DNA of 64,000 nucleotides from Geosiphon pyriformis uo1 (Eukaryota > Fungi > Glomeromycota). The notes beneath the pieces are model-generated. The model was not told the DNA's origin and did no database searches. It saw only the letters and a program-made list of their open reading frames with translations. The stretch lies in the NCBI GenBank assembly GCA_016748015.1, contig JAAOMT010000512.1, forward strand, positions 1,436,893 to 1,500,892, given 5' to 3'. The position numbers and the translations under genes are program-made. Shown in pieces: positions 611 to 54,509 of the stretch. The stretch's first letter is position 1, and every line of letters begins with the position of its first letter.

Positions 611-1573
611 TGTTATCAGAGGTTTTTGGTCTCTTTTCTTGAATATTGTAACTGTCTGTTGGTTGCAAATTCACGTTTTCTAGAAGTAGTTGAACCTCCA
701 ATAACTGAATTTATCTTCAAATTATCCCTTATAATTTGAACTGCTGGACTTATGAGTGGAATGGCCAATTCTCTGTCAGTTACTTTATGTAGTTACTTTG
801 TAGTAAACATCAACTCTTTCCCAGAAATTGCTCGTCTGGAAGCTCACTAAAAATGTGTAGTTACTTTGCTGTGAAAGTCAACTCTTCTACAGGAATCTTA
901 TCTGTAGGCTATCCTAATGATTGTAATAAAAAAAGAAAATAAAATAAAAAAAATGTAAAAGAAATAGGATTTTATCAAGGAAAACGTTTTCTATTCAGGC
1001 CTGGAGTCACTAACAGATTACTGAAATTGGTAGCTAATCAATTTCAAAATGTTAGTTGTGTTGAGGGAATTTCAAGTGTAATAATTTTAAAGATTTGGTT
1101 TTTGAATATTTTAATTTTTATTTGATTTTGTAAAAAAAGGTGATTTGTTCTAATTAAGATATTTTAAGTAAGTTACTATGGTAAGATACATTTTCTTAAA
1201 GAGAAAAGCTCTTCTTTTATACAACTTGTTGTAGTACTAGTCTATGAACTTGCACTTTTTCTCTTTGCTCAAATTTCAGCAAACTAAAGATATATTTTGA
1301 TAGACTACAAGTTATTTCACTGAACTATTGATTAATTTGGGTGAGCTATTCATAATTTCGGCAAATTTTAGAATGTTACAAAGTTCAGGGTATTGTGTAA
1401 TTTGATCATCTTACTTTCTGTTATACTAATTGAATTATTTAATTGAATTATGATATGTGATAATTGATTAAATAATAAATGATAATTTGAAATGATATTA
1501 ATATACTAATTAATTATAGGAATTATAAGAGTAATTTTTATGCCAATTAATAGCTAAAATTCTACTGGTAATA
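611..1573 (-). repeat. 3' LTR of element A
   Basis: Direct repeat of 9510-10492; termini TGTTATCAG...CTGGTAATA, decayed from TGTTACCAG...CTGGTAACA. Confidence 0.95.
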
Positions 1574-2253
1574 TAATCTTCTCTCCAGACTGAGCTTTGT
1601 CAAAGTCCAAGCACTATCTGTAATATTGAGATAGTGATCCAAAATAATTGAAGTAACCTGGTCTGAAAATTGTTGAAATTTCAGTTCTGTGAGTTTGCTA
1701 ATATATTGGACTTTCATTGGTTGCAGTATTGGATTTTGTAGAACATTTTCACAAGTATTAAACAAATCATAGAGTCTAAAAGCTGTTCTAAGTTTGTAGT
1801 AAGTGTTTGTTGGTCCAGCTGCTGTTTTGAATTGATTGTGAATTTGCTTTTGTATAGCTTTAGGAGTGAGATTTGTTGCTTCAAGTTCCAGTTTTCGTTC
1901 ATAAAGTGTGTTTCCAATGTGAAAGTATTTATATATAGAGGTGTGTTCATTGTTCTGTTCATTGAAAAGTAATAGAAGTTTTTGTTGTATTGTAGCATTT
2001 GGTGGAATGTCAATAGGAGCAATTAAAAGATTTTCTTCCAGTGCTTGCTTCAAAAGTCTTGGTAACTTATTTTCAGAGTGACTTCTTGTTTTTTTTCTAT
2101 AGGGGTGATAGTTCTGTGAATGATTTGCTACTGGGGCTGTGGTTTTTTCTGAATATAATTAATTTGACTTCTATTAATCGTTATGGATAAGTCAGGAAGT
2201 GTTTTCAAGACTAACTTTTGGGATATTTGTTGAATATTTCGGGGAATAATCAT
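1562..2253 (-). pseudogene. ORF3 of element A (unknown protein in the env position), frameshifted
   Basis: ATG at 2253 gives MIIPRNIQQISQKLV...; the track ORF 1562-2053 continues it. Homologous by eye to ORF3 of Z, C and D. Confidence 0.75.
1577..1586 (-). promoter_or_regulatory. Polypurine tract of element A
   Basis: Minus-strand GGAGAGAAGA, 3 nt before the 3' LTR. Confidence 0.8.
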
Positions 2254-2355
2254 GATAAAATTGACTAATTATGAAAAGAGAGAATAAAAAAAATTATTTT
2301 TGAATATGGGGTTTTTATTTGTTTTTGGGTTTGGATGTTTTTGTAATTTATTTAC

Positions 2356-3783
2356 TATTTTTGTCTTTGTGTTTTTATTAGAGAATTATTGTAAATTTTA
2401 AGTGTTCAAGTTTGGTTGTTGTTTTATTATAATTATTGGTTTTAAATTTCGGGAAATATCTTTAAGATTAATTAAAAAGGAATGTGTACCAATTTGTAGA
2501 ATTAATAGTTTAGGATTGTTTCTGAAATAATAGTGTTTCAATCTGTCTCCATGTGCAACTTTTACTAGTATTTTGTTATCAAGTCTTAACTTATATGATT
2601 CATTGCCTAGAATTTCGTGAATATAAAATGGTCTATCTCATTTGTTTTCAAATTTCTCACTCCATTGTTTTTCAGTCTTAGTTCTGTGTAAGAAAACTTT
2701 ATTTCCAACTTTAAATTCGTTGGTAATAGGTGGTAATTTGTTGTCATGTCTTTCTTTTTGTTGAGCTTGGGAATGTTCAATATAAGTTGCTACTATTCTT
2801 CTTTTTCCTTCCAGTGTACTAAGAAGAGTGTAGGCCCTTCTTTGGAGTGTTTCTTGAAAGTTTTCTTCATTGATTGGTTGCACTGAGTATGTTTCTACTG
2901 TGAAATTAATTGGTAATGTTGCTGTCTTTCCATAAGTAAGATCAAATGGTGTGTGTTTCATAGTATCTTGTTTTAGCATTCTATATGCTAGTAACACTAA
3001 TGGAATAAAGATATTCCATTTCTGTTCAAAGTCTGTTGAAACTTTGGCTAGAGATTCACACAATGTTCTGTTAAAACGTTCTACAAGTCCATTTGTTTGA
3101 GGATGATAGAGTAATAATAGAGGTTTTTTGACATTGAACTGTTCACAAATTTTTTGCATCAAGTTGTTCACAAAATGTGTTTCTTGATCAGATAAAAGTT
3201 CAATTGGGCATCCATGTCTACAAATAATGTCTTCATAGATGAAATTTGCTACTAATTTTGCATCTGCTCTTTGGATGGCTCTAGCTTCAAGCCATTTGGT
3301 AAGATAATCTACTGCTATTGCAATATAACAATTTCCTTGGGTTGTGATAGGTAATGGTCTGACTAAATCAATTCCAACTCTGTCAAAAGATTGTCCAACT
3401 TTGATTGGATTTAAAGGTTCTGTGGGACAAGTTCCTCTTCTTCTTTGACAACTATCACAAGATTCTACATATTGTCGAATGTCTTTTTGCATGTGAGACC
3501 AAAAATAATGTTCAAGGGTTCTTTGAATTGTTTCATCTCTTCTCAAGTGTGCTGAAGATGGATCTGTGTGCATGTTGTATAAAATTGTTTCTTTTTCATT
3601 CTCTTGTACTAATCTGAGTGGTTGGTTTAGGTTTCTGTGATTTTTATAATAGATTTTGTTCTGATGTATAAAATATTGTTTTGATTGGTGTTGTAAATGA
3701 TGTTTTTCACTTGGAAACCAGTTTTCTGGCTTGGTAAGAGTCTCCAAATAATTTTTAAAATTGCTGTAATTTCTGAGATCCAT
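2356..3783 (-). pseudogene. pol: Integrase of element A (HHCC zinc finger, DDE core, GPY/F; no chromodomain seen)
   Basis: ORF 2638-3783: MHTDPSSAHL...CDSCQ, GIDLV, LLSDQETHF, HPQTNGLVERFNRTL; continues past a TGA into PFYI...HGDRLKHYY. Confidence 0.93.
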
Positions 3784-3840
3784 TTTTGTTTGGTTATTTT
3801 GTTGGTAGGTTGGTAAGTTGTGGTGGAATTGTTGTTGGTA

Positions 3841-5280
3841 TTAATCTTGTCTCATTCTTGAGAGGCTATCAACATTGGTATGTAGTTTTCCTGGTTTATG
3901 GTGTACAATATATTTGTAGTCTGCTAGGAAATCATTCCATCAAAACTGTTTGGCACTTTGTTCAGTTTTCTTTTTATTGAGCCATTTGAGGCCAATGTTG
4001 TCTGTTATTATGTCAAATTCTTTTCTATTCTTCAGATATTGTTGAAAATGTTTAAGAGCCCAAATAACTGCGGCAGCTTCTAATTCAGTTAAGTTGTATT
4101 TTAGTTCTGTTGGTTTGAGTGTTCTATTAGCATAAGTGATAACTTGTTCTTGTCCATTTTCATATACTTGTGATAAGATGGCACCAAATGCTATATGTAA
4201 AGCATCAGTAGCTAGTTGAAATCATTTGTTAAAGTCTGGATAAGTAAGAACTGGGGCTGTTGTCAGCTTTGTTTTGAGAGTTTCAAATGCTTTTTGTTGT
4301 TCTTCAGTCTATTTGTATGGCACATTTTTATTGGTGAGATAATTGAGTGGTTTGGCAATTTCTGAGAATCCTTTGATGAATTTTCAATAATAGGAGACTA
4401 ATCCTACAAATTCTCGTAGCTCTGTGGTATTTTTAGAGATTTGGAAGTTTTTGACAGCACTGATTGTTCCAGGGTTTGGTTTAACTCTATCTTTGCTAAC
4501 AATATGTTCAAGAAAGATTAAGCTTGTTTTTCCAAAGTGACATTTCTCAATATTCAACTTCAATTCTGCTTTCCGTAATCATTGAAAAACTTTTTACAGG
4601 TAAATAAGATGGGCTTCAAAGCTTGATAAGTACACATCAGTGTCATCAAGATAAACAACTACTGATTGCCATAAGAGTCCTTCATATACAACATTCATGA
4701 GTCGTTGGAATGTTGCTAGTGTATTGCAGAGTTCAAAAAGCATAACATTGAACTCATAGTTTTCTTCTTGGGTGGTAAATGCTGTTTTGGATCAGTCTTT
4801 TGGGTCCATTTCGACTTGCCAGTATCCACTTTCCAAGTCTAAAGTTGAGAAGAACTTGGCTTTTCCTAGAGCATCTAGCATGTCATCAATTCTTGAAAGA
4901 GGATAGGCATCTCTAATTATAACACTATTCAGTTGTCTATAATTAACACAGAATCTGATTTTTCCGTTTTCTTTTTAACTAAAACTACTGATAAGACCCA
5001 AGAACTTCTTGATGGTTAAATCAATTCGTTATTGAGCATTCTTTGGATTTCTTCTCTGATGAATTGGTGGCTGGCAGGTGGCACTCGATAAGCTTGTGGA
5101 TGTTTTGGTAAAGCATCTCCTGTATGGATATGATGTTGAACAATGTTCATTTTTCCCAAGTTATTGTTGTCTTTTGCAAATATATCTGCAAATTCAGCTA
5201 TCAATTGTTTCAATTGTTTTTGTTGTTAAGATTCTAAGAGACCTATGTTAATACGAGAGAGTTTTTCTTCCAAAAGATGG
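3841..5280 (-). pseudogene. pol: Reverse transcriptase and RNase H of element A
   Basis: FSTLDLESGYWQV, VVYLDD (about 4640-4660), ATDALHIAFGAILSQ, TELEAAAVIWAL, HTNVDSLSRMRQD-stop. Confidence 0.93.
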
Positions 5281-5684
5281 TAGTTTTCAGTAGTGGGAAT
5301 GATATTTGAATTTGGGAGTAGAGTGTGCCTTACAATTTCGATAAAATTAGAGACAATTTGAGGGTTTTCATCTTGAAAAATATTGCTGTATATGATTCCA
5401 ATCTCTAATTTGTTTAATAAGACAATAGAGTAATTATTAGGGTTGTAGAATGTAACTCAAAATTTTTTCATTCCTTTGGGAATATAAACATTTGGAATTG
5501 AGATTTCATGCTTCAAACAGATTTGTTCATTGGATTCAAAGATTTGTTGTGTAGTGGTGGGTTTTGAGCAAGTGTAAATTTCGTGATATTCTTCAAAAGG
5601 TAAAATAATAATTGGCTGGGGAAGTTGAAGAATCTGGTGAAATTTATTTTGTGTATTAAGAGCTATGTTTACTAGAACTGTAAA

Positions 5685-6125
5685 TCATCCAGTTGAACCA
5701 AAACCTTGAGTTTCTCTTTCACTTTTTCCCAATTGTTCTCTGTTGTTTACTGATTGTAAACCCGAAATGTTAATTAAAAGTAAGTAAATTGCTTGAGCAA
5801 TTTTTTCAGCATGTTCAATTTTGAATGGTTTATTTGTCTTATTTTGTAACATGATAGTAATGTCTCTAGTGTATCTTGCATCTATAACTCCTCCTCTAAT
5901 ATTAATTCCTTTGGTTGCCAATGATAATCTGGAGGCAATTTGAACCATTGTTCCTGGTGGTATTTCAAAAGCAATTTTGAGATTAATTTTTGTCAAGGAC
6001 TTTGGTTGGAGAACCAAAGTATCTTTTCCTGGGTATCTTAGGTCATATCCAGCATCAATTTCGTGTGCTTTTTCTGGTCTGATTCCTTGGCCATGGTTGT
6101 CAAAATATTTAAGTTGTAGAAGTGG
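5685..6125 (-). pseudogene. dut: dUTPase domain inside pol of element A
   Basis: All five trimeric dUTPase motifs: DAGYDL, ASRLSL, GGVIDARY, EKIAQ, RETQGFGSTG. Confidence 0.93.
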
Positions 6126-6239
6126 TTGCTTTTCAAAAAGATAGATGGGGGTGGTTGGTAATTCTTCTACTAGTTCAAATACTCCAAATTCGATTTCATT
6201 TTCATCATTCTCATTTGGCAAAGGAATGTTAAGAGCATA

Positions 6240-6860
6240 ATATTTTAAACACTATTGGTCATCACAAGGCATAATACATTTTTTACACAATTGAATGTTT
6301 ATTTGCTCTAATTGTTAAATTTGAGCTTTTTTGGTCGGATATGTGTGGCTTGCAATTTGGTGGTAGGTTTCTATTTCATCTTCATAATCAAATCCAGCTA
6401 ATTCCATAGTATACTCAATATATTTAGCTTCTTTCATTTGGTGGACATCTTTTTGGGTGGCTCTATTGATCAATGCTATTGCTAAGTCAAAAATCATTTC
6501 AGCATTATGAGGGTAGTAGTAAAGTTTATTAAGAGTACTGTTGTATGCTGCATCAAATGGTGTTCCTCTTCTGACTTTTTCCGAAATTGATAGAGCATAT
6601 TGACAGGTTTGATTACATACTCCTCCTCTTATTGCTACATTAATTCAATTGTATTCTTCTGGTAGCATTTTTCCATAAGTAAGACAAGGAGTTTTGTCCC
6701 ATTTTCCACTTCTCTTTGGGGATCCAAATCATTCTCTATGGCATGCCTTGCAGAAATAACAAGTGCAAGTTTCGTATTTCTCTTCTGGGGAAATACAGGC
6801 TCTCATAAATAAAAGCTTCTTTTTGCAATCTTTGCATTTTAGTGGAATGTATGATGGTTT
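6240..6860 (-). pseudogene. Cysteine-rich domain between protease and dUTPase in element A
   Basis: CRDC, CKAC, GGVCNQTCQY, RGTPFDAA, YPH, LCKKCIMPC; homologous segments are present in B, C and D. Confidence 0.7.
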
Positions 6861-7049
6861 TTTTCGTGGTTCTGGTGTGGAATATCTAACTTTTTTTCAT
6901 CTTCTTGATTCTTCAAAAATCTCTTGTTTTGTTTTCTCAGCCCAATTGGATGGTGATCTAAGAGCCATGTAAGTTTTAGTAAGTGACATTTCTTTCTCTT
7001 CTTCAAATTCAAATACTGGAGCTTTTTCTGATCATTTGTTAAAGGTATC

Positions 7050-7520
7050 ACAGGTTGCAGATACTATGGTATATTGTTCTTGGTATGAGATTTTAAGTTC
7101 TTGAGTTTTTCAGTTCAGGTTTGTATTGCCCTTGAGAAGCCAATCATTTCCGACTAGAACTTGGTATTGGGGTGCATTCATAACAAGAACTTTAACTGGA
7201 ATGGTGATTCCATCAATTGTAAAGGGGAAATTATCAATTTCTTCTACTAGAGTCTTCTTCATACTATCAGCTGTGACAATAACTGTTTGAGCTGGTCTGT
7301 CTATGTTTTGTTTGAGTTGTTGCATCAGCTGGTAAGTGATGATACTTCCAGCCAATCTACTATCTAAGATTAAGTGAATGGGTTTTTTTTCCACTGTAGC
7401 TTCTGTGTATATAGCAGTAATTGCTTTCTGTTCATTGACTGCTGTATTACTAAGCAGAAATGGTGATTTATTTGCTTCAAATTCAAATGAAAATATATCT
7501 GACAGATTGGCATTTTGGGC
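7050..7520 (-). pseudogene. Aspartic protease of element A
   Basis: LILDSRLAGSII (decayed DSGSAGS) and LVGNDWL. Confidence 0.9.
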
Positions 7521-7599
7521 AATTTGAGTTGGTGGAATGGTATGGTTAGAAGGATTTGATTTTGGTGCTGCAATTTCACCTTCAGAAAGTGCAGTTTGT

Positions 7600-9464
7600 T
7601 GAAAATCCGATTTCTCTGGTATTGTAAGATAACTGGGTTGAGTGTGATAGTGATTGGGTCTTTGCTGACCCAAATTTCGGGGAACCAACTGGTTATTTGG
7701 ATTAATTCTGTTGTTGTTACTCTGCAATTGATTTTGGGGTATAAATTGGTTATATTGAACCAATTTTCTTGCTGATACTTGATATTGTTGAGTGAGTGGT
7801 GTCTGATATGGCTGAATTGGTAAAAATTGCTGATATTGTTGCTGCATTGGTTGTGGAGTTGGTGAATAGTAACTGTTTTGATTTTGTGATCTTGGTGAAT
7901 AATAAGTTGGTGATAGAGATTGATAATAAAATTGTTGTGGTAAAGAGTAATGTTGATTACTCCTGTTTTGTTGGTCTCTTTGTAATTTCTTACAATCTCG
8001 TTTCCAGTGTCCTGGAATTCTACAATAATGACAATTTTGAGGTTAGTTGTTGGATGGTGATCCAAAATTGTTTTGGTTGCATTGTTGTGAGGGTTGATAT
8101 CTTTGTGATTGTTGTTGTTGTTGTTGTTGGTTTGTGAAGTAGCTTTCAACCTTTTTTGTGAGTTGGTCTATCTTCTCTTCAGCTGTTGAGCTGGTTTCTC
8201 CAATTGCAAGGTTTACAAACTTGGTGTGATTTGTTTTTTCCATTGCCATTTCATAGCTTTTTGTATATCTAATAGCAGTTGCTAAGTTTGTTAGAGCATG
8301 TAGATGGACTTTCTTAATCAGTTTGTCTTTTAACCCTGCTATAAACTGATCCAGAATTTGAGCATCAAAATAGTAGTCATTGGTTTCCAATTGTCAGATT
8401 TGTCTGAGAAGTTTGTTAAATCTTCTAAGATAGGTCATAACAGTTTCAGATGTTTCTTGTTTGATATTGTGAAAGTGATTTTTGAGAGTGATAGAGATAT
8501 TGTTGTCAGTGAATTGTTATAGAAAAGCAGCTTTGAATGCTTGCCAGTTTTCAAATAGTTCTTCTAAATTTTCAAACTATTCTCCTGCTGTTCTTTGAAG
8601 AAAGTAGGGAATTGCTTTGAGTATTTTTGCTGTGATCCAACTATTTGCATCTCCTGCTTTTTGAACTTTGTCAAGCCATTCTTAAGAACTGGTATTATTG
8701 TCTTCACTAGTAAATTCTGGAATTTTTGCAATGTAAGCAGTTGTAATTTCTTCTTCGTTTTCTGTAATTTCTTCTGGTTTTGATTCAGTTTCTTCACTTT
8801 CCAAGCTTTCCGAATAATTATTTTCATTTTCCTGTAAGTAATCAATGATATTGGCACTTGTTGATATTGGTTCCTGCTATTGAGTAGAGTTTCTAGGTGA
8901 CTGAAAATCTTCTGGTCTGAAGAAGTGGTTGAGTGGTGAATTTGGTGTTTGTGGTTGAACAAGTGAAATTGGAAATAGTGTAATAGAAAGTGGTAGTTTG
9001 ACACTGGTTCCTTGTTTAGGTGTTTGCAAGTGTTTGGCAGTTGTCTTTTGTAGTGTTGGAGTGTTTGGAGTGGTTCTTGAGTATTGCTTCAATCTTTGTT
9101 TGTCTTTGTTGCTTGTTTCTGTCTCTGATTCAAAATCAATAGAGTATTGAGACTGTACTGGGTATTATTTTTCACAATACTCAATAATGTTAAAATTAAG
9201 TTCTTGGAAGTAGGTAGCAAGTGTTTTACTGTTCAGATCTTCTGTTCTCAATCGTGAATAGTACACTAAATTATTGTAAAGATTGCTTCTGACTTCTGAA
9301 ATATTGTAGTTTCCAAAAAGATAATTGTTGATGCAGTTTTCAATATATTGGTATACTGATTTCTTGACAACTTCAATTCCGTCTGAAATGTTGAATCTTT
9401 GCTTGCAGTGAATGTAAATTGACTGGTAATACTCTAGAGTTGCTGTGTTTGGTGTGGTTACCAC
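7600..9464 (-). pseudogene. gag: Gag of element A: N-terminal extension, capsid, CCHC knuckle
   Basis: CHYCRIPGHWKRDC near 7990-8035; ILDQFIAGLKDKLIKKV; AYIAKIPEF capsid start. Confidence 0.88.
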
Positions 9465-9489
9465 TTTGAATTTGTTTTTGCTGTGTTGT

Positions 9490-9507
9490 TTCTGTGGGAG
9501 AGCACCA
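9490..9507 (-). promoter_or_regulatory. Primer binding site of element A
   Basis: LTR end, then TT, then TGGTGCTCTCCCACAG, complementary to a tRNA 3' end ...GAGAGCACCA. Confidence 0.85.
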
Positions 9508-9509
9508 AA

Positions 9510-10492
9510 TATTACCAGAGGTTTTTGGTCTCTTTTTTTGAATGTTGTAACTGTTTGTTGGTTGCAAATTCACGTTTTCTAGAAGTAGTTGAACCTCCAA
9601 TAACTGAATTTATCTTCAAATTATCTCTTATAATTTGAACTGCTGGGCTTATAAGTGGAATGACCAATTCCCTGCCAGTTATTTTATGTAGTTATGTTGT
9701 AGTAAACATCAATTCTTTCCCAAGAATTGCTCGTCTGAAAGCTCACTAAAAATGTGTAGTTACTTTGCTGTGAAAGTCAACTCTTCTACAGGAATCTCAT
9801 CTGTAGGCTATCCTAATGATTGTAATAAAAAAATAAAAGAAAATAAAAGAAATATAAAAGAAATAAGATTTTATTAAGGGAAACGTTTTCTATTCAGGCC
9901 TGGAGTCACTAACAGATTACTGAAATTGGTAGCTAATCAATTTCAAAATGTTAGTTGTGTCGAGGAAATTTCAAGTGTAATAATTTTAAGGATTTGGTTT
10001 TTGAATATTTTAATTTTTATTTGATTTTGTAAAAAAAGGTGATTTGTTCTAATTAAGATATTTTAAGTAAGTTACTATGGTAAGATACATTTTCTTGAAA
10101 AGAAAAGCTTTTCTTTTATACAACTTGTTGTAGTACTAGTCTATGAACTTGCACTTTTTTTCTTTGCTCAAATTTCAGCAAACTAAAGATACATTTTGAT
10201 AAACTACAAGTTATTTTATTGAACTATTAATTAATTTTGGTGAACTATTCATAATTTCGGCGAATTTCTTATAAATTTCGGCAAATTTTAGAATGTTACA
10301 AAGTTCATGTATTGTGTAATTTAATCATCCTACTTTCTGTTATACTAATTGGATTATTTAATTGAATTGTGATATGTGATAATTGATTAAATAATAAATG
10401 ATAATTTGAAATAATATTAATATACTAATTAATTATAGGAATTATAAAGGTAACTTTCCTGCCAATTAATAGCTAAAATTCTATTGGTAACA
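9510..10492 (-). repeat. 5' LTR of element A
   Basis: Direct repeat of 611-1573, ends TGGTAACA, adjacent to the PBS. Confidence 0.95.
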
Positions 10493-10514
10493 GCGACAAA
10501 AGCAACCAAGAAAA

Positions 10515-11150
10515 ATGGAAATACCAGATTATATTTACACTATAGCTCAACAATTGTTCCAGGCCTTAAGTAAACAACAGTTAGACATAGAAATTGTTAT
10601 TAACAACCAAATAATTTGCTATCGAAGCACCCAAAGAAAGACAAAAAATACACTATATTAGCAGCCACCAAAAAATGATAAAAAATGAACAAATAACTTA
10701 ATAGAAAAAGTAAAAAACACTTTTGGGAAAATATCTATTATGGCACCAACAAAAGAGCTTACAAAAGAAAATTGGAAGCAATAGACAGAACAACTTCCAA
10801 TATTATATTGCTACTACTAGTTAGGTCAAAAGTTGAATATTCAGGAGTTGTATATTAACAATATCAAGAAAATATTCAACCAAGACATAATACAACAAAT
10901 TGAAGAATTTATCAGAAAGAAAATGAATTCAACACTACATGTTAAAACAATATACCGACTACACAACATATTTCAAAACTATCCAGAAATACTGTTCCAC
11001 TTTGACATGGAAATTATAACCATTAACCAATGGGAAAAAATAAACAATACACAAGTAGAAGACATAAGAAACAGAATTGAACAAACAATACTTGAAAAAG
11101 AAGTATTAGAATTAATTCAAAATGAAGATTTTGTTGGAGCTCAATATTAG
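10515..11150 (+). pseudogene. ORF3 of element Z (212 codons, several internal stops)
   Basis: AAAAATGG start gives MEIPDYIYTIAQQLFQAL, in frame with track ORF 10833-11150 ending DFVGAQY. Confidence 0.8.
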
Positions 11151-11828
11151 CATTGCTTGAGAAATTATAGCACATCACTTAAAAATGTGAGCAATCTCGT
11201 AAAACCCAAATTATGTATATATAGTGGTAGCATTAGAAGTAGAAAAAGACAGACCTCTCCATTTAGATTTCATCTAAGCGACCTTTTACTCCACAAATAT
11301 CAATAAATAATTATTCTCTATTTCAAATTCACTCTCCATTATTAACACTTCATGTTGATAATAATTAATACTTAAACACACTGGAACAATAACTCTTGAT
11401 CATGGCTATTGACAGGATACTAACTTGCAATTGCTTTTATTTACTTCTTTTATTTTCTTTTATTTTGTTATTTCTTTGTTTGACTAATCGATTAAAGATT
11501 AAGTGCTGAGTTATTAACATCAAGAATAGCCTGGTAAAAGACCCTAAAGGAAGGGTATAAGAATTATATATATTAATGAATAGCTTATTAAAAAGGCATC
11601 TCTGTCAAGATTACCAGCCACCATATTGAAAAAATAATTTGACAGAATTGTAATTCTGAGAGACTACTAGAAAGACAACAATTGAATCTCTGTCTATTAT
11701 ACAAAAGATTCAACCAAAATCTTTAGACACAAACAACACCTTTTAATATCCCCAAGCAGAACAATTAATTAAGCACTAAGTTATGAGTTTGTTATTTGAT
11801 TTGAGATCTCAAATAATCACTTATAACA
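11151..11828 (+). repeat. 3' LTR of element Z, missing the PPT and the start of U3
   Basis: Matches the family-1 LTR from the ATTGCT repeat block onward; ends TATAACA at 11828. Confidence 0.85.
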
Positions 11829-12200
11829 TCACTTACTTCCCAATAGCCTTAACAATTGATGTGATAATAATAATTCAGTCACTTACTTTCTAATAGTCTT
11901 AACAATCAATGCAACAATAATAATCAGATTTACTTATTTTTGGATGGTCTTAGTAATCAATGCAACAATAGTAATTCACTTACTTTTAGACAGCTACAAC
12001 AATCCACATAAATATATTAATCAAATTTGCTTATCTTTAAATGGTTATAGCAATTAATATAACAATGATAATCAGATTCACTTATCTTTGGATAGTCTTG
12101 ACAATCAATGTAACAATAATAATTTACTTCACTTACTTTTGGATAGTTATGGTAATTATTACAGCAATGCTAAATAAATTTACTTAGTGGCTTGGACAAT
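11829..12200 (+). repeat. Degenerate minisatellite, about 7 units of 45-51 bp
   Basis: Unit approximately TCACTTACTTTTGGATAGTCTTRACAATCAATGCAACAATAATAATCAGAT. Confidence 0.85.
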
Positions 12201-12689: not shown

Positions 12690-13945
12690 TAATATGATTT
12701 CAGGCAATCACCATATACTGCTTTGACTAAGATTTTGTTGTCCCATTTTAATTTATAAGCTCTATTTTCTAGAATTTCTTCTATGTGAAATGGTCTATTT
12801 TATTTGAAGTTGAATTTTTCACTCTATTGTTTTTCTGCTTTGGTATAATATAAAAATACTTTGTCTCCAATTCTGAATTCAACTGGTTTATTCCATAGTT
12901 GGTAATCATGTCTTTTTTTTTGTTTTTTTTGTGATTTTTGAATATTATCAACTGCTTTTTGTTGTTTGTTTTCTAGTGTTTTTATTAAGTCATATGTTTT
13001 TCTTAACAATGTTTCTTGAAAATTGTTTTCTGTTATTGGTTCAGTTGGATATGTGCTGACTTTTATCTCTACTGGTAATGTTGCTATTCTACTATATACT
13101 AATTCAAATAGTGTTGTTTGTATAGTGTCTTGCTTTATTGTCCGATAAGCAAATAATACTAATAATATAAACAAATCTCATTTGTCTTGATTTTTTTGGC
13201 TGATTTTGGCAATTGTTTCACACAATGTTCTATTGAATTTTTCAACTAAATTATTAGTTTGTGGATGATATGGTGATGATAATAGTCTTTTTATTCCAAA
13301 TTTTTGACTTAATTCTGTTAATATTTTATTCACAAAGTGAGTTCTTTGATTAAATAGTAATTTTTTTGGGCATCCATGTTAACAAATCAAATCTTGATAA
13401 ACGAATTCAGCAACAGATTCTGCATCTGCTTTTTGAATGGCCTTTGCTTTTAACCACTTAATAAGATAATCTATGATTACTGCTATATATTTATTTTTTT
13501 TGCTGGTTATTGTTAATGATCTGACTAAGTTAATCTCAATATGATTGAATGGTTGTCTTACTTTAATTGGTCTTAATGGTTTACTCAGTCTTGTTTCTTC
13601 TCTTCTCTAACAAGCATCACAATTTTGAATGTATTAGATGATGTTTGGATACATTGATGGCCAATAGTATCTTTTTCTGGTTCTTTTTATGGTTGTTTCT
13701 TTGTAAAAATGTCTTGCTGTTAGATCAGAGTGTATGTTGAATAATATTGTTTCTTTCTCTGGTTTTGTGATTACTCTGGTTGGTTGATCTGAATTCTTTT
13801 TGTTTTTTTGATAAAGTATATTTTGGTGAGTAATAAAATATTTGGACTGTTGTTTAATATAATTTTATTCCTTTTGAGATAATTTTTTCTTGAACTATTA
13901 AGTATTTATAAAATATTGAAGTTGTTAATATTTTTGTGTATTCAT
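12690..13945 (-). pseudogene. pol: Integrase of element B
   Basis: ATG at 13945 (MNTQKY); PYHPQTNNLVEKFNRTL; track ORF 12824-13174. Confidence 0.88.
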
Positions 13946-13979
13946 CTTTTGTTATATTTTTGGATTAGAATGTTCTTAG

Positions 13980-15380
13980 ATTTGTCTTATCTGTGACAAA
14001 CTGTCAGTATTTTCATTTTTTTTTATTGTAGTGTACAGTATATTTAAATGGTAAAAGTTCTATTTTTTATTAAGCATAGCAGTTGTCTCCAAATTCTTGT
14101 TTCTAAATCAATGTCAATTCTTTGTGATCAGTGTATATGTCGAATTTTTGGCTTAAGTATTTCTTCCATTTTATAACTGCTTAATAAATAGCTAAGTGTT
14201 TTAGTGCTGGTGTTCTATAATTCTTTCTGCTGGACTTAAACTTTGGCTGACATATACAACTGGATGTTCTCATCCATCCAGTCTTCTTTGTAATAGTATA
14301 GCTCTCAATGCTTGACTTGATGTATTTGTAGTGATGATAAATGACTTGTTATGATCTGGATAAATCAATATTGAAGCTTGGATGAGTTTTCTTCTCAAAG
14401 TGTTAAAAGCTTTTTGTTGTTTTCTTATTCATTTATACTTCACATTTTTGGCTTGAAGCTGGTAAAATAATTGAGCTATTTTTGAAAAGTTCTGGATAAA
14501 GCAGTAGTAGTATTCAGCAAATTCCAAGAATGTTCATAGTTCTATCAAATTGGTTGGTGCTAAAAAGTTCTTTATTATCTCAATCTTGTCTGGATCTGTC
14601 TTGATTCTATCTTTGCTTACTACATATCCCAAGAATTTCAATTCTGTTTTGCCAAAAAAGCATTTGGTAACATTTAACTTTAATTTTGCTTGTCTTAGTC
14701 TTTCAAATACTTGTTGTAAATAATAAAGATAGTCATCAAATGTTTTTGAAAATACATTGGTGTTATTTAAGTAGACTACTACTAATTTCCATAGCAGTCT
14801 AGTATAAACAATTTTCATAAGCCATTGGAATATAGCTGGTATATTAGTCAAGCCAAATGGCATTATTTCGAATTCAAAATTTTTTTTTGGTTATAAAAGT
14901 GGTCTTCTCTTTATCTTCTAGTTTTATGACTACTTGCCAATAATTACTATCTAAATTCAATATTGAAAACCATTTCTTTTCTCCAAAAGTGTTAAATAAT
15001 TTTTGAATTTGTGAAGTTAAATAACTGTTTCTACAAGTTACTCTATTGAGTTTTCTGTAATCTACACAAAAATGAATTTTCCCATTTTTCTTATGAACTA
15101 ATACCATTGGTAATAACTATGGACTTATTAATAGTTGAATTAACCCATTGTCTAACATTCAATTGATTTCTTGTTAGATGAGTTTATGGCTTGCTAGTGG
15201 TACTTAATATGCTCTTTGTTTAATTGGCATTGCATTTTCAGTCTTAATTTGATGTTGGATTATGTTAGTTCTGCCAAATTCATTTTCATTAGCAAAGATG
15301 TCAGTAAAGTTGTTGAGTAATATTTTGAGTTGCATTTATTGTAATGAATTTAGGTTTTCTAAATTCATTTGTTTCAATTG
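13980..15380 (-). pseudogene. pol: RT and RNase H of element B
   Basis: FCVDYRKLN, MPFGLTNIPAIFQ, VVYLNN. Confidence 0.9.
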
Positions 15381-15799: not shown

Positions 15800-16240
15800 T
15801 ATTTGTAGATCTGAATCTACTAATCCCTCTAACTGTAATCCCTAATTTTTTTCTATCTCCTACCTATATTAATTGAGTTATTTTGACCAGAGACAGGAAT
15901 ATTGCTTGTGCTATCTTTTTGTTTGGCTCTATAATATAGACTTTTTTTGAATCATTTTATAGTATTGCAATAATATTTCCCACATATTCTGCATCAATTA
16001 TTTCTTCTCTAATATTGATCCCCTTTTTTGCTAAACTACTCTTAAATATTAGTTGAATTATTGTTGTTGCTAAGATTTCTAAGGCTATTTTTAGATTAAT
16101 GCATATGTACGAATGTGGTTCCAATTTTATGACTTCTTTTCTTAGATATCTTAGATCAAACTCTGTATTGGTATTATGCACACATTCTGGTATAATACTT
16201 TCATTATTATTACTGAACCATTTAAGTTTCTGCTCCTTGG
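15800..16240 (-). pseudogene. dut: dUTPase domain of element B, decayed
   Basis: NTEFDLRY, FKSSLAKKGINI, IIDAEYVGNI, KIAQAI, RGISRFRST. Confidence 0.82.
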
Positions 16241-17329
16241 TAAAATCAGGAAGTGCAATGTATTGTTTTGGATTTGAATTAGAGTTTGAATCATTATTGT
16301 TATTGTCATTTTGAATGGAGCTGGAACTGTTGTTTTTATTGTTGTCATTATTGGAGTTTGAATCAGGATGAAATGTTGATTCCAATTCCAATGCACAGCT
16401 GCTGATTGGTTTTTCTTCTTCTGAGATCATGTAAATTATGTATAGTAATGGATTATAAATAAGATCACACTTATTACAATATTGAAAGTTATATGAAATT
16501 AAACAATAGTCACATAATTAGGTGTTTAGCTGCTCTAAACATTGTTTTTGCTCTTTCCTAGTGGGTGCTAATTCTTGGTAGTGTTTATGAAATTGTTTTG
16601 GGTCCATAGGGTTTAAAACAATATCTGAATTTGGGCTCCAATTAAATTCTATGGGTTCTGATGGGTTGTTTTTAATCATTCTTATTTTTTCTGGCAATGC
16701 ACTTTTAATTTTGGTGAGAACCATTCTCCATATTTTGTTATTATTATGTGAACAACCATCCAAATATTTTATAGCTCTTCTCTATATAGTGTCTATAGGC
16801 ATTTCTTTTCTTATCCAGTTGCTGATTAAAATCATGTATTGACACAATTTATTGCATGTTTTTCTACAACCAGGAATGTTATTCCACATTTCTTTGTCTA
16901 AAAAAGTTTCTCTACATACAAAGCATAGTTCATTATTCTATTTCTCTTGTTGTTTAGGTCATCCAAAATGCTTTAGAATACATGATTAGCAATAAAACTT
17001 GGTTGCCATTAGCCATTCTTTATCATTACCACAACATGTACTCATTAATGACAATTTTTTGTCACAGTCAACACATATTAACTTTGGTCAACAATAGTTG
17101 GGTTGAGATATAGTGTATAGAATGTAAGTAGAGATGGTGGTTTGAGTAAGCTTTTCTTCTTTTTTCTTTCATTTCCCTTTGTCTTTTTAGGTTAAAATTG
17201 GCAGTAGTTCATTGTGATTGCTTTTAGCCCATGATACTTGATAAGCTTTCTAAGTAGGTTTGTTCTTTTTTTCTTCTAATTCTATGAGTAGTGTTGATGT
17301 AGTGTTCATCTGAAAATGGCTGTATGTGG

Positions 17330-19928
17330 CCAGTATATGTATGTGCTAACTGTTTTGACTGAGTTAAAGTTCTTGTATGGTTTAATCAAACACTGCATTA
17401 GTTTTAAACAACCAGTTGTTGCCAACTAGTGCTTGATATTGGGTTGCTTCTATTACCAAGACTTTGATAGGAGCTATGATACTGTTGACTTCAAAAAAGA
17501 AGTCATCAATTTTGCCAATAAGAATTTTAGTCACTTTATTGGCTGTAATAATTCTGGCGCTAGCACAATCAACTTAGTGACCTAATTAGTCCATAAGTTG
17601 TTATGTAACAATGCTGTCTGCTAATCTACTATCAAGAATTAGTTTGATGAATTAATCATCAACTTTGGCATCAGTGTATATTGCAGTAATAGGTTTTATA
17701 TTAAGAACAGCTCTATTAAAAAAAGATGTTTTTGTTAATTTTTCTATTTTGAAAAAAAAATTACTGCTAATGATTCATTGTTAGTGACAGTTGCTGGTAG
17801 AATATTACTGGTAAGTGGTATTTGGTTAGTTTTCTGATTGTTGTTTTAAGTATTTTCTGAGATTACAAAGAGGCTTAAATAGTTCTGAGAATTTGGGTTT
17901 TGGGCATATCCAGTTTCTAAATTCCACTGGTATAATCCTGATTGTGGAGTTAATGAACTGAAATTGATTAATGTACTACTATTGCTGATCTTCAGTTTTG
18001 CTAAATAGTTCTCAGCCTTTGATTTTTAGTGAGCACTATCATTTGTGATAGTATTTGGATTTGCTGAGATTAATAAATTATTTGTGGCTGTAATTAATAA
18101 ATAACTAATACTGGAGTTTAATAAATGAATGGTTGATAAATTGGCTGCTGTGTCATTGATAGATAATTTGGTTGATATAATTCTGGATTTGGTTGATAAT
18201 TTAGAGTTTGAAACCAGCAATCAGAGTTTCAATATTGATTTCCTGATCATTGGTTATTTATGTGGTTGCAATAGTCGATTTGTAAGTGTCTTTGTTTACT
18301 ACAATAGTGACAACTACACATTTTAGTTTGCTATTGCTGATTGGTGGATGATAATAGATGTGACTAATGTTAGAAATAATTTGCATTTCCTTGATTATTA
18401 CATTATTGTAGAGGTTAATAAATGGCTTGATTGTTAACTAAGTATCCCTCTAATTTCTAATTGATTGAGTCACTGAATTGCTTTAACTTGGAATTCAAGT
18501 TAAATGATCTGTTTATTACTAGATTTATAGCTTGGCAGCTTTAAAATCTTTGGCATAAGTGACTGCAGCTTGAAGATTAACTGGATGTAATGAGCATATG
18601 TGTTGTAGGATGCTGTTGTATAATTCATGAATAAATTGATTCAAGATTTGGGCTATGATAAAATAATTAGCATCAATGACTTGGATTTAATGCAAGTTTC
18701 TGTGAAAGCATTTCAAATAAGTAGTGACTGCTTCTGTATCTTTTTGCTTAATAGTGATGAATATATTAGCCAAGCAATTAATGCTGTTGTTATTGCTGAA
18801 ATATCTTAGAAATTTTAGCTTGAATGCATCGAACATTTGGAATTTCTAAGCCAAACTTTAATACCAGGAATTGGCCATATCCTGTAAAAAATATGGAATA
18901 GCTTGGAGGACTTTAGTGTTATTCTATTCATTGGTAGCAATGGCTTTTCTCTCATTGTTAAGTTATATTTGAGCATTATCCTCTTTGCCAGTAAATTTCT
19001 TGAGTTTGGTGATTGAAACAAATGCTATTGGTGCAATTAATAGTTGTTGGGGTGGCTGTTGTAATTGTTGCTAGTGTTGTATTGGCTGTTATAGAGGTAT
19101 GACAACTAGTGGTAGATCTATTATGAGTTTTGGAGGTAAGTTTTGCTAATTAGCAATGTTAGAGTTTGGATTGTTTTGATTTTGTTGAGTTTGATTGATT
19201 AGAGTTTGATTTTCTGGGTTTTTTGAAATTGGGTTTTGATAATTAAATTCTTAATCTTTGTTTTCTTCTTTTTTTAATTCTGTCACTTCTCAAAAACTTG
19301 TGGTTCTGAAATCTGGTTAAAGTGGTGGTGATCAAAATTCTGATGGCATTGATAATTACAATTTAAATTCTTCAAAATAATTGTCATAGGTTTTTAATAA
19401 CTCTGCTTTTTTTTGTTTATTTTGAAATGAGAGGTGAACTAATGATGGTTTTGTATTTGAGATAGACATGTCTGATAATGAAATATTGATGGTGCTTTCA
19501 GATGTATAGTAATATAATAAGTTGGTTGGTGGTTCTATTCTTGTTTTCTTTCAAGTGAGTGGTTGTATTTTTTGAGGTGTTACTGCTGGTGTTTGTAGTT
19601 TTCTTTTGCTTTTGTTTGCATAAGTGATTGGATATCTTTGTTGAGTGTAATTTTTAATTTCTCTATTGATTTTAGTGAAGATTGTCATGAAGTTATAATT
19701 TATTGGTAAGCTGGTATTTTGGATTAATTCATTGTAAAAATTTCTTCTTGCTGAATTGGTTTCTATTGGTACTCCTAGCAAATATGAGATTTTCTTGTTG
19801 ACATAAAAATTAAAGGCTGATTCTGCTAATAAGTAATTGTTGATTAATCTCAAGTGTTAACAGTAATGTTGAAATAAGGATTTGGTGAATCTTAAATGAT
19901 TTGTATCTATTCTTTCTAATTCTGCCAC
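17330..19928 (-). pseudogene. gag: Gag and protease of element B
   Basis: LILDSRLADSIV and LVGNNWF protease motifs, decayed CHYC knuckle, N-terminal domain in track ORF 19551-19853. Confidence 0.82.
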
Positions 19929-19991
19929 TTTTGAATGGTTGTTTGTTGGTGCTGGTTCTCTGTAGGATTATATCTCACAAAAAGCACCAAA

Positions 19992-20812
19992 TGTTACAGA
20001 TAATTATTTGGGGTCTCAAATCAAATAACAAATCCGTAATTTGGTGTTTGATAACTGATATGATTGGTATTATCTAAAAATTTTGGTGATCCAAAGGTTT
20101 TGGTTAAGTTTTTTGTATAATAAACAGAGATTCAATAGGGTGCAATTTTTTTGTGATGAGTTTCTCAATTTTTTTCTTTAGCTTAGTGGCCAGTTTATTC
20201 TGGCAGTTGTGCTTTTTTAGTAAACTATCCAATTCTTACTCTGTATCCTTTTATTTGGGTCTTTTACCAAATTATTCAATACATCAATAACTCAATGTTT
20301 AATCTTTTAATCAATTAGTAAACAACAAGAAACAAATAAAGAAAATAAAAATAAAGAAAAAAAATAAAGAAAATTAAGCCAAGACAATAAAATTAGTATC
20401 TTGTCAATAGCCATAATCAAGAACTATTGTTTCAGTGTGATCAAATATTTGATACTATCAACATAAAGTGTTGATAGTAAAGAGAGTGATTTAGATAGTG
20501 AATAATTTTTTATTAATACTAATAATTCTAATAAAGATGTAGTAATGGAAAGGTCTTGGTTATTAATTCTGTCTTTTCTGCTTCTAATGCTCTTGCTATA
20601 TATATATAATTTAGGTTCTACAAGATTGCTCACATTTCTAAGCAATGTATTATAATTTCTTGAGCAATGCTTACATTGCTAAGCAATGTGCTCTAATTTT
20701 TTAACATTGCTCCACATTGCTGAGCAATGTGCTTATATACTAACTACTACTTTCTTATTAGTCTATCTGTTTTCCTACTATTTTTTTTTATATGTTTTTT
20801 TTATAAATAACA
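19992..20812 (-). repeat. 5' LTR of element B
   Basis: TGTTACAGAT...AATAACA; similar to the D and E LTRs. Confidence 0.92.
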
Positions 20813-23800
20813 GTATGTAATAACTTCTTAAACTAAATTGATTATTGAAAAAAATAGAAACCCAAATCCAAACCAAGATTATTTATTTTGGTTAACAGAC
20901 ATAAAACTAAATTTAATATATTTTTTATATTATTTTTTAATTTTAAAACATTTGATAAATTTAAAGACATACTTTTGTAACAATTTTACTACTGGTAATT
21001 ACACTCAAACTCTTATTTATTACTATTTTTGCCTTTTGATTCTACAATAAATAGATTACCAATAACTAATATTCAAGATTAAACTAAGAAATTATTGGAT
21101 TAAATATGTTCAATTTTATAGCCAACTTATTAACTTGTTCTATAAAGCTAGTAAGATTGTATTTAAAAACAATAAATCTATTATTTACTTTTACAAACAT
21201 TGACAAAAAAGGTTTAATATCTGAAAACAAATCAATACCAAAAAAAACCTAAAACATTACATAAAAAAAAAACTACTAGCAATCTGTACTTATGTTTTAC
21301 TACTAAAAGAAACTTAATAAGCAATTGATGTCTACTTTTTTTATATATGCCAGCCAACTATATTTAATCTTAAAAAAATACTAGTTTTTTATTATAATTA
21401 CTCAAATTTTTACTAGCTAAATATGTATTAAAATATGATCAAATTGTTTATACAAAATACAACAGACCAAAAAAAGATCAGCTTAACACAAATTTACATT
21501 TTTAAAAACCAAAACAAAACTAATTACAGCTTTTTTTAAAGCTTTATTATTAAAACAAATTACAGCATATTTGTTATATTTATATAAATCTAAATTATAA
21601 TTAATAAAACAAATTTTTTTTACTATATAATATCAATAAATTAAAAAGATTATAAATACTAATATTAACTAACAAGATATATAACAAAGTTTAATAACAA
21701 TTTCTTGATATTTATATTTGTTTATTATTAGTGGTTTTGGTTACACAAACAGAATTTTTTCTTATAAAAACTGACTAGTTAGTTATAACCAATTTGGCAA
21801 TATTAGCAAATTTAAATTCAATTAAAGTTTTTTGCTAAAAACCAATGAGTTGTATTTTAATAAACACTATTTTAAGGTGCATGAGCTGTTATTTTCTATG
21901 TTAACTGAATTACAGATAGTAGTCTTGGCTTTAGAGTGTGTTTTTTTTGATTGCTCTGTAGTTGTATACTTGGATAGTTAAGTTATATTAAATACATATG
22001 TTTCAAAACTTATGCTGGATTGTTTAAACTTTCATAATAAGTACTGGGTGGAAAGATGCCATATTGCTAATTTGATCAGAACCAAAAATATTTCTGTTAA
22101 ATAGGTAAAGATTAAAGGGCATTTAAGGGTTTTGAGCAATAATAAAGTTAATGTTCTAGCAGATAAAGCTGTATATTCTGAATTGTTGCTTCCTATAGAA
22201 ATTCATAGAAAATTTATAATGGCTGATGGCTAGATTGTTTTTGGGAATGTTTGCTATTTTGTTTGAAATGTTTATTAGTCTGTATATTATGCTCAATAAG
22301 AAGCTGATCCTGGTGCCAAAATAGTAAATAAGTCTTTAATTGCAGATATTAATTGGATTAGTACTGATGTAGTTTGGCATTCAGATTTATACATGCTGTT
22401 TGAGTTCATAAGCAAAGCTTCTACTATTCTTTATACTTATATGATAAAGGCTGTTCACAGAAGGCTGCCAACTGCAATAAGGAAGAGACTTTACAACAGA
22501 GTATATCCAAGTGTGTTATGTCTGTTTTGTGATAACATTAAACTATCTGATCATATTTTTACTTGTCCAAAAGACTCTAATACATGAACTAACATTTTAT
22601 TTATGTTAAGCTCTGAAAATCTCTGACAAATGATAGCTGCACATTGTTTTCCAAGATGCTGCATTCACTTCTCTCTGGAATCTTGAACATTGGTATTTAC
22701 ATGGTTTTGTGTAAAAGTTTTGTTTTTAAAAAATAGGTAGATAAGGCAGTTAATATTTTCAATAATTAGAAAAGAGCATTGTTTATAATAGTTAATTTCA
22801 TTCATGGTTTGGCTGAGAGACATCAAAGTAAGTTGTAATTGTTTAGGACTAAATTCAGAATAGGGTTGGAGAAAACCAGTCTGACTAAAGATGTTGGCTT
22901 GATTAATATGACTTTAAAGAAGATTCTGGGTCTTTTGTCTATGGGAACTGTTCAACTGCTTGGTATTTTCGAATTTTTTGCTGTTAGTTTTAGTTTGTGT
23001 AAGTTGTGCACTTTTTTTCAAGTATTGATAATGATGTGAAGGTTCTTATAAGTGTATAGTATAACTTAAACTGGCCTGAATGGCTGATCACATGTAGTAA
23101 GTACATAAACCATGTTTAGTTAGATTTTTTTATTATGTTTCTGTATGTTAAATAGTAATTAGACTGTACTTATTAATAAAATATAAAAAAAAACACTACT
23201 TTATCAAACTTAGAAAAAACTGATTCTATGGCTGATTTAAAAAAATCAACTAGAATTTTCTTAATAATTACTTTCTAATTTATATAAATATTTACTTTTT
23301 TAATATTATTATTAATTAAAATTTTTTTACTAATCATATTCTTAGTCTTTTTCAAATTTAATTTTGATGTAAAAAATAATTTTATAATAGCAGAAAATTT
23401 TAAAAAAATAAATATCTCTTTAAAACTATTAATAGAATAAAAAATTTTTTTTATTGTCATTAATTTATTACTAAAAGTCTTGTCAAACATAGCAAATAAC
23501 TTAATATTTAATGTAAATAATATAACTGGATTAAAAATCTTTTTTTTGATTTGTAACTTAACAATTAGCAACTGTTAAAAATCAGAAAACTTGAAAGATA
23601 AAAGTATCAAAACATTATTATTATTACTTAAATTATTAAAAAAAAAATTTTTATTCTTTGGCAAACTGCTTAAAACATATGTTTTAGTATATGTATTTTT
23701 TAATATAGCATTATTCATTGTATTGTCTATGTCTAAAACAATTAAGTTTATATAGTTAATTTTTTAATAATTATGTTTTTTATATTTTTAACTTCAAGAT

Positions 23801-24200
23801 TCTACTAATATTGCTTATTATATTGTTAACCTTACTATCCCAGAATTTTTTAAGTTCAATACCATCAACTTTTATATTATTAATATTCAAAAAATTAATA
23901 AACAAATTAACCAATTTACTGTCAATTATAAGTTTCTTTGGCTTTTTGTAAAATGTATTATAAGTATAAAAACTCTTTATATTTTTTTTGTATTAGACTG
24001 AAACTTTAATCCAACCAAATTAGAACTAGAATTGCCAACAAAAAAGCTCACCAGTTTTATAGTTATAAATAAAAGTATATTGAAAAAAACAATTAAAAGA
24101 GCAAAAAGAAAAAAAAGCTATTTTTTTAGTTTTTTTATGCTTTTATTGTAATTAAGAGATTAACAAAAAAACATTTTGTTGTTTTTTATTTGTTTATAAT
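20813..24200 (-). mobile_element. Old LINE fragment (ORF1 and start of ORF2), split by a second LINE at 21875-23190
   Basis: Collinear with LINE ORF1 at about 51900-53900; track ORF 23275-23571 is similar to 53110-53439. Confidence 0.8.
21875..23190 (+). mobile_element. 5'-truncated LINE: RNase H, C-terminal Cys-His motif, 3' UTR, A-rich tail
   Basis: TELQIVVLALEC, KIKGHLRVLSN, CLFCDNIKLSDHIFTC. 13-bp TSD AAACACTATTTTA (21862-21874) / AAACACTACTTTA (23191-23203). Confidence 0.9.
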
Positions 24201-27768: not shown

Positions 27769-27781
27769 TTATCCTCTCTTT

Positions 27782-28447: not shown

Positions 28448-28534
28448 TATTGTTTTAATTTTGACTGCTATTTTGGAATTTTTTGCATGCGTTTTTATGG
28501 TTGTTAAATCATTTTTGCTGTGATCTAAGATTAA

Positions 28535-29914: not shown

Positions 29915-29943
29915 TGTTGTTGTGGTGGGTGGGTTGGTGATTT

Positions 29944-31350: not shown

Positions 31351-31779
31351 GGCCAATTTTTCTGGCATAAATTGATAGCATTCTAATGGTTGTTGCCAAT
31401 TTATTGAAGTGAGTTCACAGTAAAGGGCAATTTCTGGGAAATTTAGAATTTCTTGTGGTGTTGATGCATTTTCTAGCTCCATTCCAAGATATCCAATGAT
31501 AGTATTTTCCGGAATGTAGACGGGTTCTTCTGTGGTGTTTGCGATAGGAATTTTTATCTATTGAGCTTTATCAGCTGGAATAAAAAAGTTAATAAGTCTT
31601 ATGAGAAACTGTTGGCAAGTTTCTGAGTAGGGCTCAAATATTAGATTTTTTTCTTTAATTGTCTTTTTTATTCTTATTTCTGATTTTCCATATAGTAGAA
31701 ACATGATGGACCGCTCATTTTTAATTACTTTGCCTTTTTCCTCTATTGTTTTAGCAAAATTTGCTTCAATTCCTTTTTC

Positions 31780-41934: not shown

Positions 41935-41959
41935 CTTTTGTTATATTTTTGGATTTGAA

Positions 41960-54500: not shown

Positions 54501-54509
54501 TTGAAAAAA

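Follow-up and report, generated by a model that had tools for sequence, protein, structure and literature searches.

A conserved GUG codon as the probable start of a long Gag-Pol in Ty3/gypsy retrotransposons of Geosiphon pyriformis

The gag gene of LTR retrotransposons is normally assumed to start at an AUG codon. Several described systems follow other rules. The glyco-Gag of MLV starts at a CUG codon, upstream of and in frame with the gag AUG, that has A at −3 and G at +4; a GUG is also reported from ribosome profiling, and the extension is reported at 6.7% of gag translation; gammaretroviral glyco-Gag extensions are generally AUG-free (PMC5778647). PEG10, a domesticated Ty3/gypsy gag-pol, is reported to use an upstream CUG as well as an AUG start, both shown by mutation (PMC2800197). 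In RTBV, ORF I lies behind a long leader with uORFs and starts at an AUU codon used by about 10% of ribosomes, followed by about 900 nt without an internal AUG (PMC5902531).

Here, we analysed a window of 64,000 nucleotides, the whole stretch of DNA under study, from the genome of the fungus Geosiphon pyriformis, in which LTR elements are reported to occupy 41.2% (PMC11952901). From the gag frames of the retrotransposons in this window, and from those of their homologues, we infer that a weak GUG codon probably starts a long Gag-Pol and that ribosomes leaking past it probably begin a short, Ty3-like Gag-Pol at the capsid AUG. The proposed arrangement resembles that described for MLV glyco-Gag in that a non-AUG codon with A at −3 and G at +4 stands in frame with an AUG-started gag and opens an AUG-poor extension. 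The products, however, would differ: whereas glyco-Gag has a signal peptide and enters the secretory pathway, the extension found here, of 239–310 residues, is predicted to comprise a soluble four-helix domain and a linker, in elements without env. PEG10 likewise has a Ty3/gypsy-type gag frame with a non-AUG start ahead of an AUG, a layout deduced here from sequence; unlike the Geosiphon elements, it is a host gene, uses CUG and gains only 34 extra residues, and the cited parts of that report give no evidence that its start was inherited from a mobile element (PMC2800197). With RTBV, the elements would share a long leader with uORFs, a non-AUG start and an AUG-free stretch before the downstream start, but RTBV is described as a pararetrovirus with an AUU codon, a separate ORF and ribosome shunting, whereas the extension found here is fused in frame to the capsid (PMC5902531).

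A shorter Gag from an internal AUG is also known from another LTR retrotransposon, Ty1; unlike the elements considered here, Ty1 belongs to the Ty1/copia group, starts its full Gag at an AUG and is reported to make p22, which restricts transposition, from its own Ty1i RNA (PMC5408680). A fungal example is described in Neurospora cpc-1, where conserved non-AUG codons, likewise flanked by A at −3 and G at +4, give N-terminally extended isoforms, although cpc-1 encodes a cellular transcription factor and the codons are ACG, AUU and CUG (PMC5487733). Our search of the literature, which covered largely titles and the openings of abstracts, found no report of an autonomous LTR retrotransposon whose gag starts at a non-AUG codon.

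A nest of decayed elements

Decayed LTR retrotransposons of the Ty3/gypsy type make up the nest in the window (Table 1). They were recognized by self-comparison and Pfam searches, and in them gag, zinc knuckle, protease, dUTPase, RT, RNase H and integrase follow one another in Ty3/gypsy order. Element A, read through with X, matches Retrotrans_gag, zf-CCHC, protease, dUTPase, RVT_1, RT_RNaseH, Integrase_H2C2, rve and SH3_Tf2-1, and C matches Ty3_capsid. B and E are relatives of D; a search of the window for a 3′ LTR matching B found none. A D-type element on the opposite strand, Z (1–609 and 10493–11829, plus), harbours element A in its 3′ part, and the gag of C is interrupted by an A-type solo LTR (33850–34847). 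The dUTPase domain lies between protease and RT (5685–6251 and 15957–16517, minus) and is preceded by a cysteine-rich region. Elsewhere in the window, four copies of a direct repeat of about 100 nt, with 51-nt spacing, occupy 11882–12180, and a 2.3-kb inverted duplication with 70% identity (51648–56755) is related to 20815–24200. A search for tRNA genes within the window found none; the sequence that follows the LTR in the leaders is described here as primer-binding-site-like (PBS-like).

The copies have decayed by C-to-T change on both strands, because the differences between paired LTRs are nearly all C/T or G/A (transitions account for 47/53, 45/45 and 88/91 in the three pairs) and because D carries A or T where most contigs of run X1 carry G or C at 31 of the 40 best-supported among 219 differences. 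The first-pass annotation of this DNA had described a G-to-A bias; transitions do dominate, but the change is not G-to-A alone.

Table 1. Positions of the elements and of their features in the window.
Feature	Position	Strand	Details
Element A	611–10492	minus	LTR pair 94.5% identical; 4-nt target duplication TCGC/TCAC
5′ LTR of A	9510–10492	minus	TG..(C/T)A ends
TATA-like box, 5′ LTR of A	10114–10121	minus	about 610 nt before LTR end; same site in 3/3 A-type LTRs
Leader of A, 5′ LTR to GTG	9465–9509	minus	45 nt; PBS-like TGGTGCTCTCCC first, then A/C-rich
GTG of A, putative start codon	9462–9464	minus	TTCAAA GTG GT
AUG-poor N-terminal extension of A	8748–9464	minus	239 codons, in frame with capsid
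N-terminal domain of A	9168–9461	minus	predicted four-helix fold, pLDDT 91
Capsid-start codon of A	8745–8747	minus	ATT here; Met in 82/94 A-family proteins
Capsid, zinc knuckle, protease, dUTPase of A	5067–8747	minus	frame of the GTG; scattered stops
RT, RNase H, integrase of A	2389–5088	minus	integrase ATG at 3783, after TAA
3′ LTR of A	611–1572	minus	preceded by polypurine tract
GTG of B	19926–19928	minus	TCAAAA GTG GC; leader 63 nt; capsid codon ATA at 19028
Element C	26895–37608	minus	LTRs 36735–37608 and 26895–27767, 94.8% identical; target duplication ATGG
GTG of C	36650–36652	minus	ACAAAA GTG GT; leader 82 nt
Capsid ATG of C	35771–35773	minus	AACGAA ATG A
GTG of D	48011–48013	minus	TTAAAA GTG GC; leader 62 nt
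LTRs of D	48076–48875 and 39018–39817	minus	88.6% identical; without matching target duplication
Capsid ATG of D	47108–47110	minus	GATCCA ATG G
GTA of E, codon homologous to GTG	62572–62574	plus	GAAACA GTA AC; capsid codon ATA at 63502
RNase H/integrase junctions	3783–3864 (A), 13945–13999 (B), 29914–29967 (C), 41934–41989 (D)	minus	
ORF3, between integrase and 3′ LTR, sense	1562–2158 (A), 27902–28534 (C), from 40497 (D)	minus	
ORF3 of Z	10515–11138	plus	

The codon at the head of the gag frame

The gag frame is headed by AAA GTG G in A–D and by ACA GTA A at the homologous codon of E, at the same positions in all five copies as the first-pass annotation had given for the beginning of protein similarity; the GTA of E is presumably a decay product of GTG. 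The codon stands 45–82 nt past the 5′ LTR, downstream of the primer-binding-site-like sequence, with leaders of 45, 63, 82, 62 and 64 nt in phases 0, 0, 1, 2 and 1 in A–E. In-frame stops occur upstream of it in all five copies (at −36 codons in A and −23 in E); the earlier description of leaders that differ in phase is borne out, but in-frame stops are not confined to B, C and D. GTG is the rarest Val codon elsewhere in these frames (9/139), so that its occurrence at the start site is beyond chance, and the last 15 codons of the leaders hold no other near-cognate codon common to the copies. The AAAATGG sites with which the codon had been compared are present at the integrase of A and at ORF3 of D and Z. 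In filamentous fungi, A at −3 and G at +4 are described as the key context bases of conserved near-cognate starts (PMC5487733).

Homologues extend this comparison to 356 retrieved predicted proteins, which yield 294 stretches in three families, 285 covering the start column and 9 without it; a few chimeric gene models are counted in two families, and the counts are of residues of predicted proteins, with codons seen only in the five window copies. The start column holds Val in 246 of 285 rows, Met in 27, Leu in 11 and Ile in 1 (Val/Met/Leu/Ile 112/14/5/1 in the A family, Val/Met 15/1 in the C family and Val/Met/Leu 119/12/6 in the D family), the Leu rows being gene-model junctions at AG/TG, and Val-Ala is the commonest pair of first residues in all three families. 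The Met share, about 10%, is similar to that of G-to-A change at neighbouring codons (5–16%; A>T 11, E>K 9 and 5, and G>R 17 among 107 rows; D>N 15, E>K 8 and A>T 6 among 118) and stays at the decay rate although gene callers favour ATG. A true ATG column behaves otherwise: at the capsid start, which aligns across all three families, Met stands with Ile (154 and 25 of 180 rows; 82 and 12 of 94 in the A family; 72 and 13 of 86, with one Pro, in the D family). Judging from these two columns, ATG at the first site arose by decay of GTG, and GTG did not arise from ATG, so that the proposal that GTG is ancestral stands, with Val and not Met as the consensus residue.

All named homologues are hypothetical proteins of G. 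pyriformis G9A89, among the best 120 of 548 and the best 120 of 471 matches. A search with representatives passed 251 proteins; among the best 150, 110 were new and belong to the same three families or are fragments thereof, and the ten new proteins that were looked up are all from G. pyriformis. Pattern scans for relatives outside Geosiphon gave 547 and 475 matches in two scans of metagenome contigs and 71 in viral contigs, none of them confirmed. Some homologues are probably the window's own copies; the capsid of C, for instance, recurs in sequence in P0314. In effect, the sample amounts to three families from a single species, with all copies decayed and inactive and descended from few parents. 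In the public annotation, these decayed copies (P0001–P0356) appear as many hypothetical proteins in which various upstream exons precede the Val (548 and 471 matches).

Upstream of the Val, constraint ends, to judge from two boundaries that lie at the codon or just before it: D-family gene models join three leader frames to one Val (69, 14 and 8 of 107), and 29 contigs of run X1 cease to match D four bases before it. At the three start bases of D, contigs of this run, which may be the window's own source, show no difference among the 40 of 219 rows listed, at a summed depth of about 100,000, a weak agreement. An alternative is that the true start is an upstream AUG in the LTR or primer-binding site, with the Val internal and the stops due to decay. 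In C, an in-frame ATG indeed lies 69 nt upstream of the GTG, inside the primer-binding site, with two stops between; in E, another lies 60 nt upstream of the GTA, also in the primer-binding site; and some gene models read the leader in frame. However, other copies have GTG or GGTG where these two ATGs stand, not one of the 16 C-family proteins begins at such a site, the leaders are found in each of the three phases, and a stop-free upstream in-frame ATG is absent from all five window copies. An upstream AUG is thus largely refuted, and we leave it the slightest of probabilities.

The codon could also be completed by splicing, as is reportedly the case for the env of Drosophila gypsy: the G of GTG would end an intron (AG/TG), an LTR exon ending in A would make the AUG, and unspliced RNA would give the short form. 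In each of the five window copies, the bases at −1/+1 of the codon are AG, a possible acceptor, which gene models use in the Leu rows; a donor-like GT at the LTR end (GTAACA) lies 50–90 nt upstream; and the depletion of AUGs described below would be expected here too. Yet the acceptor is AAG in four of the five copies and follows an A/C-rich, pyrimidine-poor stretch, a poor fit to the fungal acceptor consensus YAG. A donor at the LTR end would yield GTG or TTG, not ATG, and an A/GTRAG donor is present in A-type LTRs but was not found in the LTRs of C or D. Furthermore, five D-family proteins have Asn at −1, the codon of which ends in C or T, so that, as read back from protein, the AG has been lost and the A at −3 kept. 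We consider a spliced start quite improbable.

The AUG-poor extension

From GTG to the capsid, the frame runs for 239, 300, 293, 301 and 310 codons in A–E, interrupted only by scattered stops. All six gaps among B, D and E in this region are multiples of three, and their transversions are distributed over the three codon positions as 32/32/58 in the domain (P 0.0008) and 58/59/82 in the linker (P 0.012); by these signs, and by the confident fold model of the domain (pLDDT 91), the extension is coding. The first 100 residues are homologous in the A, C and D families, at 19–29% identity (hhalign E 7e-6, 2e-5 and 2e-13), and the hhalign alignments of D to A and C start at residues 7–11 after the Val; this homology was established through C, which serves as a link, and with profiles, the pairwise BLAST of A against P0014 being not significant (E 0.72).

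In A, the extension consists of a helical domain and a Q/P/S/T/N/E-rich linker, and the four-helix model of the domain obtained with AlphaFold2 has its first helix from residue 7. Foldseek with this model gave no match at E ≤0.001 in the PDB or viral libraries. The best result of the fold search is a designed protein (VIA Z 7.5, rmsd 3.0, 96 residues aligned), which is within chance for helical bundles; with regard to a matrix fold, the searches returned only generic helical matches, and Pfam gave just a sub-threshold PAZ_2 on C (E 0.007). A look-up by sequence likewise turned up nothing that resembles the domain. Near the N-terminus there is no signal peptide or membrane segment (the top 19-residue hydropathy is 0.83–1.22 in A–D, and E reaches 1.9 only at residue 255, in the linker), so that the analogy with MLV glyco-Gag drawn in the first-pass annotation applies to the logic of translation and not to the nature of the protein.

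Along this whole extension, Met is nearly absent, as had been noted at the outset: in-frame Met codons number 0/239 in A, 3/300 in B, 1/293 in C, 0/301 in D and 1/310 in E. The capsid-start codon that follows is ATG in C and D and ATA in E, all re-found where first described, as well as ATA in B and ATT in A (at 8747). The predicted proteins tell the same story on a larger scale, with 2 Met in 20,846 extension residues versus 160 in 11,457 capsid residues among 94 proteins of the A family, and 46 in 18,498 versus 118 in 8,784 among 73 proteins of the D family, where the 46 are scattered, mostly at Thr- or Val-like positions. A count of conserved Met between GTG and the capsid Met in the consensus, the check proposed earlier, gives zero columns in both families (0/238 and 0/300), none reaching 30% Met.

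The depletion is not confined to the reading frame. In the DNA of the window, ATG occurs 18 times in 4,329 nt of extension versus 447 times in 25,649 nt downstream. Out of frame, the extension has 13 ATGs versus 34.9 expected from codon shuffles, a value as low being reached in none of 2,000; the capsid control has 34 versus 35.2 expected, and 13 downstream control blocks give P values of 0.07 to 0.97. Copy by copy, the out-of-frame depletion has P values of 0.011, 0.105, 0.03, 0.199 and 0.0005 in A–E and is thus not significant in B or D taken alone. ATA, the decay product of ATG, is likewise depleted out of frame (65 versus 101), and the two are the most depleted out-of-frame triplets, aside from CpG words, which decay removes. 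Leaky scanning, the mechanism suggested by the first-pass annotation, predicts AUG depletion of this kind in and out of frame and is supported as the presumed mode of initiation.

If only the long form were made, the GUG would serve to throttle expression, and the Met at the capsid start would be a protease cleavage site or a structural residue. Retroviral proteases cleave beside hydrophobic residues, and the context of the capsid AUG is moderate and not conserved, with C at −3 in D and A at +4 in C, both of which count in favour of this possibility. However, it leaves unexplained why Met is reduced to 2 in 20,846 residues and why the out-of-frame loss of ATG ends at the capsid Met. A short form would, moreover, match most Ty3/gypsy Gag proteins, which are described as consisting of capsid and nucleocapsid, without matrix (PMC6525542). 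Production of the long form alone is very improbable.

The leader weighs against simple scanning. All nine LTRs examined have a TATA-like box 606–655 nt before their end; the leader would therefore be about 600 nt long, with two or three shared upstream AUGs, the uORFs of which, mostly of 3–13 codons, scanning must leak past or reinitiate after. In the 5′ LTR of A, two shared short uORFs lie downstream of the box, given a presumed transcription start. No stable hairpin was found downstream of the GTG (z 0.3 to 1.1). In the last 120 nt before it, two local hairpins are present on the minus strand in B (19929–20048, z −5.2) and D (48014–48133, z −3.9), one spanning the LTR end and the other pairing the primer-binding site with the downstream leader, and none was seen in A, C or E, the copies being decayed. 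Among the features of a shunt, uORFs are present and hairpins occur only in the B and D leaders of these decayed copies.

Such a long leader with uORFs could favour an arrangement in which the long form starts at the GUG and the short form comes from an internally initiated transcript, or by internal entry or a shunt, instead of linear leaky scanning. Ty1 provides a precedent: its truncated Gag is reported to be made from an RNA that starts internally, the full-length RNA not being its source (PMC5408680). A separate transcript, however, would not need the loss of AUGs in three frames over the 700–930 nt from the GTG on, and we regard this arrangement as unlikely.

Two forms of Gag-Pol and their significance

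Under leaky scanning, which we favour, ribosomes would scan the capped LTR RNA, leaking past the upstream uORFs or reinitiating after them. A minority would start at the GUG and make the long Gag-Pol with its predicted four-helix N-terminal domain, and most would scan on to the capsid AUG and make the short, Ty3-like Gag-Pol without a matrix domain, both Gag forms thus coming from one RNA. By analogy with RTBV and MLV, the long form may amount to about one in ten. Both forms would include protease and RT, and therefore the switch would govern how much of the N-terminal domain is made, not the Gag:Pol ratio. Most likely, the long form would be a minor component of the particle, with the extra domain outside the capsid shell at the position of retroviral matrix; from this position, our guess is that the domain targets or anchors the particle.

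A similar layout recurs further downstream. In A, B and C, an aligned TAA closes RNase H (CAA in D). An A/C-rich spacer of 32–60 nt follows, in phases 0, 0, 2 and 1 in A–D, after which integrase opens with an aligned ATG that has A at −3 (ATA in C). The parallel with the integrase start drawn by the first-pass annotation thus extends to the phase-variable A/C-rich spacer and the A at −3, but this start is a true AUG. Integrase may be a separate ORF, which would be unusual for Ty3/gypsy elements. Between integrase and the 3′ LTR lies ORF3, of about 200 codons, which starts at AAAATGG in D and Z; a Pfam search with its copies in A, C and Z gave no match. Taken as a whole, the genome might be a polycistronic, scanning-controlled RNA that encodes a long Gag-Pol with a new domain from the GUG, a short Gag-Pol from the AUG, a separate integrase and a third ORF, a tentative picture to which we give somewhat less than an even chance.

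Three families with extensions so divergent have all retained the putative GUG start, and they carry an unusually clean signature of leaky scanning; the exact codon is newly pinned here by nearly 300 copies in the three families. The GUG start would also account for the hundreds of decayed copies that have been called host ‘hypothetical proteins’ with differing upstream exons. If true, it would extend the strategy of gammaretroviruses, PEG10 and pararetroviruses to autonomous fungal retrotransposons, and it would mean that a Ty3/gypsy Gag carries, in the place of matrix, a domain that has not been described before.
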